Positions 15,601 through 21,600 of a stretch of 27,369 bases of DNA are shown here, piece after piece. The DNA is taken from the IMG/VR virus record IMGVR_UViG_2721755712_000004, positions 1-27,369 of that record. One strand, 5' to 3'. The position numbers were made by a program. Each line of letters opens with the position of its first letter. Positions within the stretch are counted from its first letter, which is position 1. This DNA is from a virus. Lineage: Duplodnaviria > Heunggongvirae > Uroviricota > Caudoviricetes.

Positions 15601-18600
15601 CTCGCCTGGTCTCTTACTCCTCAGGTTCGTAAGCTGTGAAGACAGCGACCTCCGTCTGGCCGGTTCGGATTCGTACCTCGCAGAGGTCTTTCCTCGTTAT
15701 CAGTACCGCAACAATTTCGTATTCATGATTCATTTCATCTAAAACAGTTCATAAACCTAAATAAATTCAAAAAATCACAACACAAATAAATATAAATTAT
15801 CTCATCCTGAAGAACGATAGGATTATTTAGAATTAATAACAATTAATGTAACAATAATTATCAATCCAGATTATTCAAATAAAATGTCATTTACCATATG
15901 GAGTTGTGAATGAACTTTAATTCATTTTTTATTTTGTTAACAGATAAATTCACGGATGTCCTAACTCTATTCACAGTCATTGCATCTCCTGGATTTAACA
16001 ACTCTAATGGTTTAGACTTAGCACTTGACATTCTGCCACTACCCAGAAAATCATCAAGAATCACAATGTGATTATTAGGATCATCTGTTGTAAAATTACT
16101 AATATTTTGTCGAATTACCTCTCTTACAGCTTCGATGTACATTTTTGTCTGTTGATTTGGTTTATTCCTTGCTCCTGCCACTGTTGACCATCCGCAATGG
16201 GTAATAACCACCATCTGAATTTTTGGTGTATGGCCATCAGACGGCATTATCTTTCTAAATTCTGATGTTGGTTTAGTCAGAGTATCAATAAGTAATCTTA
16301 ATGAATTAATCGATTGCTGATCTGTCCTCACTGGAACTATTAAAGCATCTGTTGCATGCCAAGATAAATGCGTCGCTCCAGAGAAAAAAGGTGATGTATC
16401 AATTAACGCTTTTGTAGTACCAGTTTCAACCATTTCTCTGGCTATTTCTTTCTTCAGAGAAAAAAGAATTGTATCAATAACAACCTGCTGAGTAGCCCCA
16501 GAAATTGTTCTGGCTTGAGCCAGAGCATTCGCCATTTGCGTAGGTAGAAGATAAAGTTGACTATCAGATTGAATAAAATAGTTATTCTTGCCCGCAAACC
16601 AAGCATTAGTTGATGATACTAGCTTTGCAGCACGCGTTGCAAATCCAAGCCCTGGAACAAAATAAGGCATTAAGAGGTCATTTGCAGTTGTGCTAGACGA
16701 AGATGCATAATTATTGTCAAAAAAATATGATAAATTTCCTTGCGGGCACGTATCCACGATTAATGCGTTATCCGCCAAATATGACAGATTAAAAGTTAAA
16801 GATGTCTTACCAATGCCTCCCCGTAAATTACATACTGTATATTTATCATATTTCGGCAAATTAAGACTTCTTACATTACCGTCAGCAACTTCGAATTGAC
16901 GCTCTATCAGAGCATTAACATTTGATTCACTAGTCATATCGCCACCATTAGTTTTACACTTTTATTGATGATATGGAAAACTAACCTAGTTGTCAACAAT
17001 GGATTAAAAAACAAACACACAAGCGTTTATCAAAAGCACCTTGATTGGTGATACTACCGTGTCTTTCAGCCAAACAGTTCAGTATGTAAAGCGAATCCAA
17101 CATCAATTAAGAACGTTTTCAGCGCTCCCCCAGTTGTCTAGATGTCAAACTTCATGCGCTCTCCTGTCGAAATAAACGTACTGATTAATCATGCCCAAGG
17201 ACATTTCGCGTTTTACAGCGATATCACGGCGGGGAACTCCACACTGATGAAGCTTCCGCACTAGCTCAATATCGCTTTGCGGATGTTTTTTTGATTGGTT
17301 ATAACCCCCCCTCTTAACATCCTATTGATACCCAGTTCCTGCGCTTTCGCTCTGACAGCATAACTAGAACGATCAATCAACCCTCCTATGCTTTCGGCCG
17401 TCAACGCGTCTACACAATTGCCTAAGCGCCATGATTTCCCTCATGCACAACCTGTTCACCGAATGTCTCTCGAAAACCATTCTGGTAAAATGCCAGTACA
17501 CGCTGCATAGCTTCGCTCTTCCGGCACTCGCGACAGATTATGTTCTGACGCCTGTCGTAGCGACGTATTTCTCCGTCAGGTAATGACCAGATAAGGTCCG
17601 GATCAACCGCAGATGGTTTCTTCAGCTTTGCCCTTGAGAGCTTTTTACGGGCATTTTGCCAGTCCTTACGCGCCTGTTCAGACGGGAATAACCCGTAACC
17701 AGAGTTGTATACATCGCCACTGGCAACCAGCTCTCTGGCCAGAACGCTCATCAGATATCTTGTTGCCCCAGTTTTAGTTTCCAGTTGTCGTAACGTCTCG
17801 CGCCCACTCTGGCGTACGAGTTCAACAACCTGCCCTTTAATTTTTTCCCGCTCTTCTTGTGTAAAAACTTTTGCCACAAGCCCTCCTGAAAATTACCTCA
17901 TGACCAGAAATTAACACTTACCCCCTGAAGCCCGGCGGAATTTCGTTATCCGGTTCAGAAATATGATTCACACAACGCTGGTTGTTCGTGCCGCTTACCG
18001 GGAGCAACCAGGGGTTCTCAAAATTCCGGTCCGGTCCAAAAAACGTCGTCGCTCGCTGAACAAATTCCGTTCCCGTTTTCCCGGTAGCCGCCAAGTATCT
18101 TGCGTAACGCCTCACGCCATCCAGCATGGCCTCTGGTGGCACCCCCTCGCGTAATCTGGCCTTCCAGGCACTGAAAGCGGATTTCTTCGGGTTTGCCCCG
18201 GCACGCAACGGGTATTCCCGCCAGACCTGTTCGAACACATCAGGATAATCCACTCGTCCCACAGGCTGCCCGGTGTTTTCCGGGACTACCCGATCGGCTT
18301 CCCGCTGAATGGCGGAATCGGCTTCAGGCTGCTGAAGTTGGTGTGATTGCTCCTGCCTTGCGGTCATCACCTGCTGCACAGCGCCCGAATCGGCTTTCAG
18401 CGCATACGCTGAATCGGCTTCCGGTGTCGTGCCTGCGGGCTGGCCAGGAGTGACGGTCTGAACATCCCCTGCCTGGTTCGTGGCGTTTTTTACGCCATGG
18501 ACCATAGTGTTTTGATCTTCTTGATCTGTATCTTTATCTGTATCTTTATCTGTCGTGACTCGTCGTGACATGTGCGTGACATTTCGTGACTCGCCGTGAC

Positions 18601-21600
18601 AATCGCCATTTTGTTCCCGCTTTCTTTCCCTCTCTCGCTGCGCCCTCTTGCGCTCTGCCGGAGATTTTGCGGTTTGCGAAATATTGCCGTTGTCCTCTTT
18701 CAGCACCTGGCGTTTTTCCCATCCAGTGATTAAATCACCATCAAGTACCCGCCCCTGCATCGTCTGCAAAATTGAATCAATTACCTCTTCTGTCACGTCG
18801 AGCGCACTTGCCAAATCTTCTGTCGTGACATCAATGTGACCTCGCGTGACATTTCGTGACGCGCTCACCAGGAGGTGGATATACACTGCCATCACTGTTG
18901 CAATTGGCTGCCCTGACACCCTGGCAATTGTTCGCCACTTAGGGTCATTTGGCATGTCATGCCATAATCTGAGCCAGGCGTTAGCCATACTCACCTCTTT
19001 TGATACCGAATCTTTTTACTCACAAATTGCCGGAAGTGATCCGGTATGAATATTGCGAGTCAATGCACAGCCACAATATTTCCTGCAGGGCCACCACGAT
19101 TCATCTGGTTGAAACCAGCGATCGCCACTGCGACAAAATCATCAGCGTCTCTCACCAGTCGTTCCCGCGTCTCCACTAGTTCCCGAAAATACGCTGAGCT
19201 ATGACTGCGCATTCGGGCCACCAGCAGAGGTGGCATTGCTTTTTCGATAGCTGGTAACAACGCCTGAATTTTTTTAACCGCATCAGGGGTGTCTTTCTCC
19301 ACCCAGCGGAAAATTTTCTGAGTATTGCGAGCCAGGGCTTCCGGATGGCTGTCGTCATACAGTTCCGGGAACGTCATTCCCAGCTCGAAATACGCTTTGG
19401 TAATTTTCGCAGCCGGTACTTTTTCGCCGTCCGGATGCGCCCAGGCATTCATCGCCATGCGGATGTGTTCATGCTTGATTTTCATGAATCAACTCCCATC
19501 AGCTTTTTCGTAGTAGTTTTATTCCTGCCAATAGTTAAAATTGCATCGGCAGAAAATAATCCGTTTGATGCAAGAGCGATTTTTTCAGCGTAATTTGTTT
19601 CGCCGGTATATTCTGTGCGAGGCAATTTTCCGTTATCCATCCATTTATAGATTGCTCTTTGGCTGACACCACAAACGTCGGCCACAACAGCAACGCGAAC
19701 AGTTTTGATTACATCTTCAAGTGTTTTCTGGTTCATATCACCCTCACAATGTGAACTTTGAGTACATGCCATAACAGAACTGACAGTACATTCAAGAGCG
19801 AATATCATTGAACTTATGGTTCATGAAGATAAAGCGCGTAAAGAGTTCGCCAGTAGGCTTGCGCTAGCCTGTGAAAACGCTGGTTATGAACAACATGGAA
19901 GGCAGGCAGAAATTGCCCGTCGAATGAAATTAACACCAAAAGCGGTTAGCAAATGGTTTAATGGCGAAACAATTCCTCGCCGGGAGAAATTAAGGGAATT
20001 AGCAACACTAATAGGAACAACACCAACCTATCTTTTGGGAGAGGATACAGAAGAAAGTGGACAGGTACGTTTCTATCAGGAGTTAAATCCAAGACAAAAA
20101 ATCATCATTGACCTTCTGGACGAGCTCCCTGACAGTGAGACAGATGAACTTTTAAAAACTCTTGAAGAGAAAAAACAGAAGTACAATGCAATTTACGAAG
20201 AGTTAGCACGAAAGAAAAAACAAAAAGCCTCTTAAACCAGCATAAATCCGGTAGCGCCTTCCTCCGGGTTTGTGCTTCACTTTATCCCATCTCATTTTTT
20301 TACACACAAAATGTACTAAAAGTACTTTACAACAATGAACGCAAAGTACATTATATGCCTACCACCCACCCCGCCCCACAGAATGCAGGGCAATACTTCG
20401 AGTTACCAAGCAGTGGTCAGGGGTTAAGTAGCCAGCCCGAGGCGTAAGAACATGACGGCAGGGTTCAACTTTAATAACTATGCAGCAGGTTTTTGTTCCG
20501 CTACCCCGGCGTTAAGGGGAAATGAGGTCAGCATGGATACTATCGATCTTGGCAACAGCGAATCTCTGGTATGTGGCGTGTTCCCCAACCAGGACGGTAC
20601 GTTCACCGCGATGACGTATACCAAAAGCAAAACGTTTAAAACCGAAAATGGTGCCCGTCGCTGGCTGGAAAGAAACTCAGGTGAGTGATATGGATTTCGA
20701 CACAATCATGGAAAAGGCTTACGAAGAATACTTCGAAGGCCTTGCCGAAGGCGAAGAAGCTCTCAGCTTCAGCGAATTTAAACGGGCGCTTTCCAGCTCG
20801 GCAAAATCTAACGGCTGATAAGCGAAACAGCACCGCGAGGAATCAGTATGCAGAAACGAGAACCCGTCATCATCGCGCCAGACTATACCGATGATGAGCT
20901 TTATGAGTGGATGCGCCAGAAAATTAAGGCCGCGCAGGACCTGAAATGGGCCAATGAAGCCAAGGCTAAGCAGGCTGAAAATCTGTCCGCTCTGGAGCAG
21001 GATATCACCAATTTGGAAAAAGCAGCGGCATTAAGCATTGCCAGAATGATTACATACCCACGTTAATAGCTAACCAACGAGGCTAATAATGGAATTTAAA
21101 GATTTACCAATGCAATTCCAGGAAATGGCAGCGAATATAGTTCGTTCCCAACTGGCGACTCTTGACCTGAGTACCGTAGAAAAAGAAACCATCGATACTA
21201 TATCCGGTAACGTGCGTCGTGCCTTTATCGGTCTGTACGAAGAGAAGCAGCTCTCTGATAACCAGGATTTACATGAAAAATACCTCCTGGAATTAATGGA
21301 TATCATTGATAAGGGGTTTGGCGGTAATGACTCCAACTTATTGATAGTGTTTTATGTTCAGATAATGCCCGATGACTTTGTCATGCAGCTACACCGATTT
21401 TGAGAACGACAGCGACTTCCGTCCCAGCCGTGCCAGGTGCTGCCTCAGATTCAGGTTATGCCGCTCAATTCGCTGCGTATATCGCTTGCTGATTGCGTGC
21501 AGCTTTCCCTTCAGGCGGGATTCATACAGCGGCCAGCCATCCGTCATCCATATCACCACGTCAAAGGGTGACAGCAGGCTCATAAGACGCCCCAGCGTCG

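Follow-up and report, generated by a model that had tools for sequence, protein, structure and literature searches.

The 27,369-nucleotide (nt) stretch of DNA analysed here in full (IMG/VR virus record IMGVR_UViG_2721755712_000004, positions 1 to 27,369; hereafter the window) corresponds to a lambdoid prophage, now decayed, of enterotoxigenic Escherichia coli, and its minus strand carries a gene for a phage replication initiator. Inside this gene we found two arrays of a short hexamer, GTCACG on the gene strand, one of which adjoins an AT-rich tandem repeat. Sequence comparisons indicate that the hexamer arrays are very probably iterons for the winged-helix domain predicted in the encoded protein and that, together with the (GATAAAGATACA)n tract, they would form a theta origin within the initiator gene. 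The repeats, their phasing, their conservation at the DNA level, their co-variation with the initiator subfamily, the instability and AT codon bias of the tract, and the family and position of the gene were all computed in this work. The best reading of this arrangement is an origin similar to ori-lambda in an initiator which is not a lambda O, with a two-array layout and in a module devoid of a helicase loader. The features concerned are the following.

17918-18988, minus strand: replication initiator gene, located after the cI, cro-like and cII/YdaT-like genes
18554-18600, minus strand: iteron array 1, five GTCACG on the gene strand spaced by 10, 10, 11 and 10 bp, adjoining the AT-rich tract
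18824-18860, minus strand: iteron array 2 (distal), four phased GTCAC(G/A) on the gene strand at gene nt 129, 139, 149 and 160
18792-18797, plus strand: single inverted hexamer copy, GTCACG on the plus strand, gene nt 192-197
18508-18553, no strand: AT-rich tract, candidate DNA unwinding element, 12-bp repeat in three copies, (GATAAAGATACA)n on the gene strand
18474-18504, no strand: palindrome with a 13-bp stem, beyond the AT-rich tract on the side away from the iterons; DNA fold of -10.9 kcal/mol, z = -4.8
18695-18988, minus strand: N-terminal domain, amino acids (aa) 1-98, predicted winged-helix DNA-binding domain (AlphaFold2)
18041-18244, minus strand: helical C-terminal domain, aa 249-316 (AlphaFold2 helices; block-mean predicted local distance difference test, pLDDT, ~62-79)
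17921-17983, minus strand: DnaT-like C-terminal tail, last 21 aa, QRCVNHISEPDNEIPPGFRG (phmmer against the PDB: DnaT entries 6aep, 2ru8 and 9zbt_D)

Repeat arrays and AT-rich tract in the initiator gene

Read on the plus strand, array 1 is made of CGTGAC copies starting at 18554, 18564, 18575, 18585 and 18595 (spacing 10, 11, 10 and 10 bp). Array 2 has copies at 18824, 18845 and 18855 and a one-base variant, TGTGAC, at 18835 (spacing 11, 10 and 10 bp). An earlier note on this DNA had described two iteron clusters. Its 12-bp repeats followed by five CGTGAC copies were recovered, as was the inverted copy, whereas its second cluster proved to contain three perfect copies and the variant instead of four perfect copies. 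The 17-bp block GCGTGACATTTCGTGAC, reported in the same note as shared by the clusters, is indeed present in both arrays, at 18574-18590 and 18844-18860. The arrays are ~265 bp apart, within 310 bp of each other. Nine of the 17 CGTGAC matches in the 27.4-kb window fall inside 307 bp, where 0.19 would be expected (binomial P 6e-14). No further CGTGAC/GTCACG cluster was detected in the window or in the genome of phage Tritos, whose initiator gene is its sole annotated replication gene and carries the only GTCACG cluster of that genome.

The initiator is a protein of 356 aa when translated from the likely ATG at 18988, which is the start used by the RefSeq coding sequence WP_001262390.1 and by its relatives; the mechanical open reading frame begins at a GTG at 18994. 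It matches the 'replication initiation protein' family phrog_3729 over its full length (E=6.9e-257, 852 bits, residues 3-358 on model positions 1-356 of 356). RefSeq names the window copy 'hypothetical protein'. In the records of phages Tritos, Evi, vB_EcoS-689R5, 640R1 and 204576, near-identical copies go under the names replication protein O, replisome organiser or primosomal protein I, and the identity to the 'replication protein' of Tritos is 98%. This family assignment, the O-type names in phage records and a gene position equivalent to that of lambda O support the candidate origin put forward in the earlier note.

An AlphaFold2 model of the initiator was built with an alignment of 50 sequences. 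Most of the region from aa 11 to 90 was predicted with a pLDDT of 91-98, with helices at 29-45, 56-63 and 67-77 and a beta wing at about 78-88; a weak HTH_Crp_2 match covers aa 39-79. This domain is followed in the model by a basic helix (aa 110-130) and by a disordered linker (aa 131-202, with a pLDDT below 50 for aa 137-202). The C-terminal domain is matched by phrog_1701, phrog_26426 and phrog_270. Alignment with the O proteins of phages phiSTEC1589 and HannyBb indicates that it is common to O-like proteins with unrelated N-terminal domains.

All the repeats fall within the minus-strand open reading frame (17918-18994), as had been stated. Their description as encoding RNVT/TDKD-type repeats was only partly right, since GTCACG is read in all three frames, giving C-H-G, E-S-R, V-T, M-S-R and V-T in array 1 and S-R, V-T, G-H and V-T in array 2. 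What repeats is therefore the DNA, not the peptide. In the protein, aa 130-160 of the predicted disordered linker correspond to array 1 and the AT-rich tract. Array 2 covers the codons for the last part of helix 29-45 and for the loop formed by aa 46-55 of the predicted winged-helix domain, while the inverted copy encodes a D-V-T turn between helices 56-63 and 67-77 of the predicted helix-turn-helix. According to the model, these segments are the ones most able to bear a sequence imposed by the DNA.

An AT-rich unwinding element was looked for next to the arrays, and the 12-bp repeat tract itself qualified. The tandem repeat, TCTTTATCTGTA in 2.9 copies at 18519-18553, abuts array 1. The A+T content of the tract is 72%, versus 46% for the gene, and, of all 40-mers in the gene, the one starting at 18510 is the least stable (-43.4 kcal/mol, versus a gene mean of -57.4 with a standard deviation of 3.8), within the top 1% of the window. 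Two GATC sites are located in the tract, at 18513-18516 and 18523-18526. Compared by eye with the E. coli oriC 13-mer consensus GATCTnTTnTTTT, GATCTGTATCTTT at 18521-18533 on the plus strand agrees at 9 of the 11 specified bases; as the GATC is found in the E. coli allele only, we gave this likeness no weight.

The palindrome beyond the tract may also be a part of the origin. It is kept in the O gene of phiSTEC1589 (locus L003, 5489-5517), where a compensatory change affects the inner end of the stem. A scan of the region for promoters and terminators revealed nothing above chance apart from this palindrome, and an Rfam scan did not reveal any RNA family there. Hairpins after the AT-rich tract were considered as a feature of the whole family and rejected: small, GC-rich hairpins are frequent by eye in distant relatives, but their mean z is -1.2 and only 8 of 37 fall below -2. 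Elsewhere in the gene, four copies of GAAGCCGAT are present on the gene strand at 18293-18424, in two 36-bp units 96 bp apart. They are all in one frame, read (P)EADS and also occur in phiSTEC1589; they may be a repeat of the protein or of the DNA.

Conservation and co-variation of the repeats in relatives

A protein search with the N-terminal 163 aa of the initiator retrieved 917 homologues, many of them 58-75% identical and originating from Pseudomonas, Azotobacter, Enterobacter, Klebsiella, Chromobacterium, Bordetella and Achromobacter; relatives were also found in Aeromonas, Sphingomonas and others. A scan of viral contigs with the N-terminal domain yielded 80 loci, all 99-100% identical and uninformative on conservation. 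We used instead an alignment from a scan of genome contigs with one genome per species, which gave 45 loci from alpha-, beta- and gamma-proteobacteria.

Absence of the repeats from homologous initiator genes would have spoken against the earlier note, but they are present in these genes. In six close phage or prophage copies the iterons are invariant, and array 1 varies only in the spacer between its first two hexamers. About 25 gamma- and beta-proteobacterial species, with a GC content of the locus ranging from 34 to 69%, carry GTCAC at gene nt 129, 139, 149 and 160. Most of these GTCAC-type relatives have the inverted copy (GTGAC at gene nt 193), and they contain three to five more copies at gene nt 370-500, mostly around 390-430. 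Overall, array 1 comprises 2-6 copies at the equivalent place in relatives. Relative to them, the E. coli allele contains a 21-bp in-frame insertion (7 aa, HMSRRVT) which adds two array-1 copies, five versus three. Copy number thus moves by in-frame steps of 21 bp, and it also varies in array 2, of which the Escherichia albertii gene (L090) has six copies at gene nt 129-181. The densest locus is that of Erwinia phyllosphaerae (L114), in which GTCACG is mixed with copies overlapping 5 bp apart and with inverted copies (GTCACGTCACGTCAC) at gene nt 142-224 and 412-451.

Conservation at the DNA level was assessed on third codon positions, using the ungapped first 330 nt of the gene from 21 species (locus GC 34-69%). 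The mean majority fraction at these positions was 0.93 in the array-2 hexamers versus 0.55 outside (Mann-Whitney p=4e-6).

Distant members of the N-terminal family lack GTCAC, and at both of its places a different hexamer is found, namely CGAACGC in 8 loci, GTAACG in 4 and GTGACG in 1. The encoded peptide shifts with the hexamer type, for instance from SRNVTRGHVDVT to SNATERGRTQ. Both arrays contain the same core in 36 of the 37 genes with clear repeats, the 37th being a tie. In these 37 genes, neighbouring cores are separated by 10 bp in 134 of 197 cases and by 11 bp in 37, a total of 171 of 197. The type of hexamer follows the subfamily of the initiator N-terminal domain across the four types. 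Two other E. coli O alleles sharing only the C-terminal domain with the window protein have different repeats, each its own, beside a short tandem-repeat tract at the equivalent place. The HannyBb O gene has five to six 23-bp iterons followed by three copies of a 12-mer, and the phiSTEC1589 O gene has GAAGGGGCTTC copies beside two copies of a 12-mer, with inverted copies ~250 bp upstream. The repeats thus track the DNA-binding domain, as expected of initiator-binding sites, and this behaviour is hard to explain otherwise.

The AT-rich tract follows a different pattern, its hexamer being constant across subfamilies with different iteron types. (GATAAA)n or (GATACA)n occurs directly after array 1 in every subfamily, even at loci with an A+T content of 31-40%. 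In 18 loci of 55-69% GC, the GAT:GAC ratio was 53:6 in the tract versus 143:227 in the rest of the same genes (p=4e-14), and the AAA:AAG ratio was 38:13 versus 86:162 (p=2.5e-7). Such AT-biased codons in GC-rich loci indicate that the A+T richness of the tract is selected at the DNA level. Lambda O was reported to bind AT-rich single strands (PMC7466680), which prompts the speculation that a conserved region of the initiator, or else a host factor, may recognise the constant tract hexamer.

Known origins and alternative roles of the repeats

Ori-lambda consists of four 18-bp iterons and a 38-bp AT-rich tract inside the O gene (PMC3349717, PMC7466680). In the lambda record, the four annotated 18-bp iterons are found at O gene nt 349-433 and precede an A-rich tract on the coding strand. 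The window has the same layout: the repeats lie inside the initiator gene, which the earlier note had likened to ori-lambda within O, at the part encoding the junction between the N-terminal DNA-binding and C-terminal recruiting domains; the order is DNA-binding domain, iterons, AT tract and C-terminal domain; the genome position is after cI, cro and cII; and an AT tract, A-rich on the coding strand, is located immediately downstream of the iterons (PMC3349717, PMC7466680). Gain of iterons by in-frame insertion is another point of likeness, with two iterons and 13 aa in Stx phages (PMC7466680) and two iterons and 7 aa in the window allele. However, a Pfam scan of the initiator returned no family at E<=0.01, including no Phage_rep_O match, and BLASTP against lambda O (E=0.044) aligned the low-complexity linker only. 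The initiator being not detectably homologous to lambda O, the comparison is one of architecture and not of family. The lambda units are ~20-24 bp apart, whereas the window has a 5-6-bp core once per helical turn. In addition, the window has a second array and an inverted copy within the part encoding the DNA-binding domain, where lambda has a single array, its AT tract is itself a conserved hexamer/12-mer repeat, and no P gene comes next. Like the window, ori-lambda has a palindrome beyond its AT tract.

The oriL of phage SPP1 lies inside gene 38 and comprises repeats bound by G38P and an adjoining AT-rich unwinding element (PMC5737612). The location of the origin within the initiator gene is thus the same, and G38P is a non-AAA+ protein (PMC5737612). 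G38P is a 'replisome organizer', a name given by RefSeq ('phage replisome organizer') to close copies of the window initiator, whose N-terminal domain matches PF09681 (Phage_rep_org_N) over the full length of the model but below threshold. SPP1 differs in having its own loader and helicase, G39P and G40P, and a second G38P-binding region, oriR, elsewhere (PMC5737612). The window has neither loader nor helicase, its two arrays are within 310 bp of each other, and the hosts are Gram-negative.

Two iteron sets are also present in the plasmid replicons of P1 (incC/incA) and F (ori2), and short octamer repeats in ori/crr of phage P4. In these elements two arrays of one short repeat are served by one initiator, one array is beside an AT-rich region, and DnaB is recruited without an element-encoded loader. 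However, these arrays are on either side of the rep gene, or kilobases from each other, instead of being inside coding sequence, and these origins use DnaA boxes, none of which was found at the window arrays.

Several observations weigh against an iteron-based origin in this gene. No DnaA box was detected in or beside the arrays, and the count over the whole window is at chance level. The conserved core, which may not be the true binding unit, measures only 5-6 bp, far less than the 18-23 bp of the iterons of lambda, HannyBb or plasmids. The match to PF09681 is weak (E=0.016, 15.6 bits versus a cut-off of 23.3, model positions 1-119 of 121). A Foldseek search of the full-length model against the PDB gave no significant match; most of the list consisted of winged-helix regulators, which is consistent with the predicted fold. 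The amino acids encoded by the arrays are conserved as well, so that selection on the protein could account for some of the conservation. In three loci from low-GC hosts (L116, L118 and L124) the repeats are at most degenerate, and in two others (L125 and L130) array 2 is missing, though there are repeats near the linker. Array 2 is far from the AT-rich tract, in the part encoding the DNA-binding domain, and could serve control and not initiation. The copy of the prophage in the window, with its insertion sequence (IS) insertions and truncated structural genes, may never fire. Finally, our literature search on the origin of this family did not return any report of binding, opening or replication for any member. 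In L125 and L130 (Serratia and Pantoea), the N-terminal domain is joined to a different C-terminal part, and palindromic ACTACGTAG-type repeats are found near the junction (gene nt 320-380).

The role of array 2 is where another interpretation has the most room. Array 1 and the AT-rich tract could be the origin, array 2 and the inverted copy forming a control element that acts by titration, handcuffing or a transcription block with autoregulation. The second iteron sets of P1 (incA) and F (incC) act in control in this way (titration, handcuffing, autoregulation), lambda works with a single array, and L125 and L130 have repeats near the linker and no array 2. Besides its distance of ~265 bp from array 1, array 2 has no AT-rich tract of its own, and it is located in the 5' third of the gene, where a bound protein would meet the transcribing polymerase. 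On the other hand, it is the most rigidly conserved part, with identical positions in ~25 species. Its core changes together with that of array 1, which fits a joint action, whether positive or negative. We regard a control element as possible but the less likely role of array 2.

Two interpretations without iterons fare much worse. The repeats might bind another protein (the DUF977 protein, the cII/YdaT-like regulator, a ParA-family system or a host factor) for transcription control or partition. Such a role could be suggested by the ParA-family gene 1 kb downstream, which has no obvious ParB or centromere, and by the small size of DUF977 proteins, for which a weakly matching PHROG is labelled 'DNA binding protein'. 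DUF977 and ParA are missing, however, from most of the loci compared. The repeats are always in the initiator gene beside an AT-rich tract, and the hexamer type tracks the N-terminal subfamily of the initiator across loci with differing neighbours (P-like, apparently DnaC- or DnaB-like, or unrelated), so that we consider binding by another protein very improbable. Lower still, and largely refuted, we place the possibility that the repeats are a by-product of selection on V-T, S-R and D-K/D-T motifs in the linker and loop of the protein, with no function as DNA. It is true that S44, V47, T48, R49, G50, H51, V54, T55, V65, T66, S134, V144 and T145 show no or almost no variation among 20-50 homologues, and that the D-K/D-T tract is always in one frame. 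However, a single hexamer gives unrelated peptides in its three frames. Synonymous third positions are near-fixed inside the hexamers across hosts of 34-69% GC and saturated outside. The replacement of SRNVTRGHVDVT by SNATERGRTQ between subfamilies keeps the phased hexamer, with both arrays shifting together, codon choice in the tract opposes the GC content of the host, and the arrays are in a predicted loop and a disordered linker. An origin with iterons bound by the initiator itself is thus the interpretation we retain.

Prophage setting, helicase loading and proposed mechanism

Strain TW10598 and eight others have chromosomal sequences 100% identical to the 2.1 kb around the repeats. In TW10598 the prophage is inserted between potB and potC; IS elements are present in it, and structural genes are truncated. 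The genes next to the initiator gene in the window are listed below.

19816-20235, plus strand: cI-like repressor gene, divergent
19482-19808, minus strand: cro-like gene, upstream of the initiator gene
19060-19485, minus strand: cII/YdaT-like gene, directly upstream of the initiator gene
17422-17877, minus strand: DUF977 (LygF/Ren-like) gene (PF06163, 7.8e-29; phrog_142, Ren-like exclusion protein)
15891-16937, minus strand: ParA-family gene, downstream of the DUF977 gene

The initiator gene thus holds the position of lambda O, behind cI, cro and cII-like genes, and early transcription would reach it from the cro-like/cII-like side (19060-19808, minus strand). The DUF977 gene stands where a helicase loader would be, and one weak PHROG match of its product is labelled 'DNA binding protein'. 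The same gene order with DUF977 was observed in Tritos, Evi, 689R5, 640R1 and HannyBb. The replication module, taken as the 2.1-kb stretch 17400-19500, is present at near-full length in ~1,560 of 5,426 complete E. coli genomes. A plasmid collection was searched for the module as the sole replicon of a phage-plasmid; the only matches, to records of at least 150 kb or to mislabelled chromosomal records, were uninformative.

Other features of the window were recorded in passing. The ParA-family ATPase gene (15891-16937, minus strand) belongs to an integrated lambdoid prophage and has no recognisable ParB; the next gene has no assigned function (14847-15488, minus strand; phrog_5786), and a Hok/Gef remnant is annotated near it in TW10598. 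The window also contains the DicF small RNA (22785-22836, plus strand), four tRNA genes (9466-9772, minus strand), an IS009 RNA element (41-244, minus strand) and IS1-like open reading frames (~21389-22035). The IS1 copy is at another place in the TW10598 prophage.

No loader gene was found directly downstream of the initiator gene in the window, Tritos, Evi, 689R5, 640R1 or HannyBb, and the complete Tritos genome (46.4 kb) has no annotated helicase, loader or primase. The absence of a P/DnaC-like loader next to the initiator gene, pointed out in the earlier note, was thus borne out, the following genes being of the DUF977 and ParA families. In other species, a lambda-P-like gene (PF06992) comes after the initiator gene in four loci (L091, L093, L102 and L114). 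Judged by eye from the translation, with no family scan, the downstream gene resembles that of a DnaC-type loader in L105 and L112 and of a DnaB-type helicase in L103. These P-like and apparently DnaC- or DnaB-like neighbours indicate that the family sits in the 'O' position of an O-P module.

The end of the initiator suggests how such a module might work without a loader. Its tail aligns with that of E. coli DnaT, or primosomal protein I (RDVNTVSEPDSQIPPGFRG, DnaT 159-179), and is nearly identical to it (SEPD..IPPGFRG). With the NCBIfam DnaT model NF002770, the protein scored 19.3 bits versus a cut-off of 201, the match being limited to model positions 156-179. The O proteins of HannyBb and phiSTEC1589, otherwise different, terminate in this tail too, as do several distant homologues, and many relatives of the initiator have the whole C-terminal single-stranded-DNA-binding domain of DnaT (PF17948). 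In sequence searches of the PDB, DnaT alone was matched, through the tail for the window protein and through the C-terminal domain for a profile of relatives. DnaT is a preprimosome subunit proposed to bring in DnaB-DnaC (PMC13377028); the function of the tail is not stated in that paper (PMC13377028). As a lead, the solo initiator may recruit the host helicase via its DnaT-like tail. We searched the literature for 'DnaT-like' phage initiators and found nothing specific.

Binding, opening, helicase recruitment and a part for array 2 can be inferred as follows. Upon induction, transcription from the early promoter would run across cro and the cII-like gene into the initiator gene, and the initiator would be made. 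Its N-terminal domain would then fill the phased sites of both arrays, as well as the inverted copy at 18792; spaced by one turn of the helix, the sites would all face the same side of the DNA. The filled sites would produce a bent or wrapped nucleoprotein complex, in which the arrays, ~265 bp apart, may be looped together. This complex, with negative supercoiling, would open the least stable stretch (18508-18553) beside array 1. Host DnaB would be loaded without a phage loader, probably via the C-terminal domain and the DnaT-like tail engaging the host DnaB-DnaC or the PriA primosome.

A broader scheme can be proposed only tentatively and may well prove wrong. In this initiator family of alpha-, beta- and gamma-proteobacteria, the origin would consist of two phased arrays with a 6-bp core in the initiator's own gene. 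Its specificity would have been re-set repeatedly by changes of one or two bases in the core (GTCACG, GTAACG, GTGACG, CGAACG), each of them rewriting the peptide encoded by both arrays. In the 'solo' form of E. coli, the tail would mimic DnaT and connect the opened (GATAAA)n tract directly to the host DnaB-DnaC or the PriA restart primosome, so that a phage loader would not be needed. If such re-setting is true, the sequences of the origin and of the initiator are one evolving text.

An origin inside the initiator gene is a textbook layout; this initiator family and its two-array origin seem to be undescribed. The advance is therefore one of scope and detail and not of principle. If confirmed, it would define the origin and the specificity code of a widespread and poorly annotated initiator family, and it would allow origins to be called from sequence alone in the annotation of prophages. 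The DnaT-like tail offers a testable route to the host helicase for a phage without a loader. The matched pairs of initiators and iterons, one or two bases apart, constitute a natural series for studying how origin specificity evolves under coding constraint and for obtaining orthogonal replicons.

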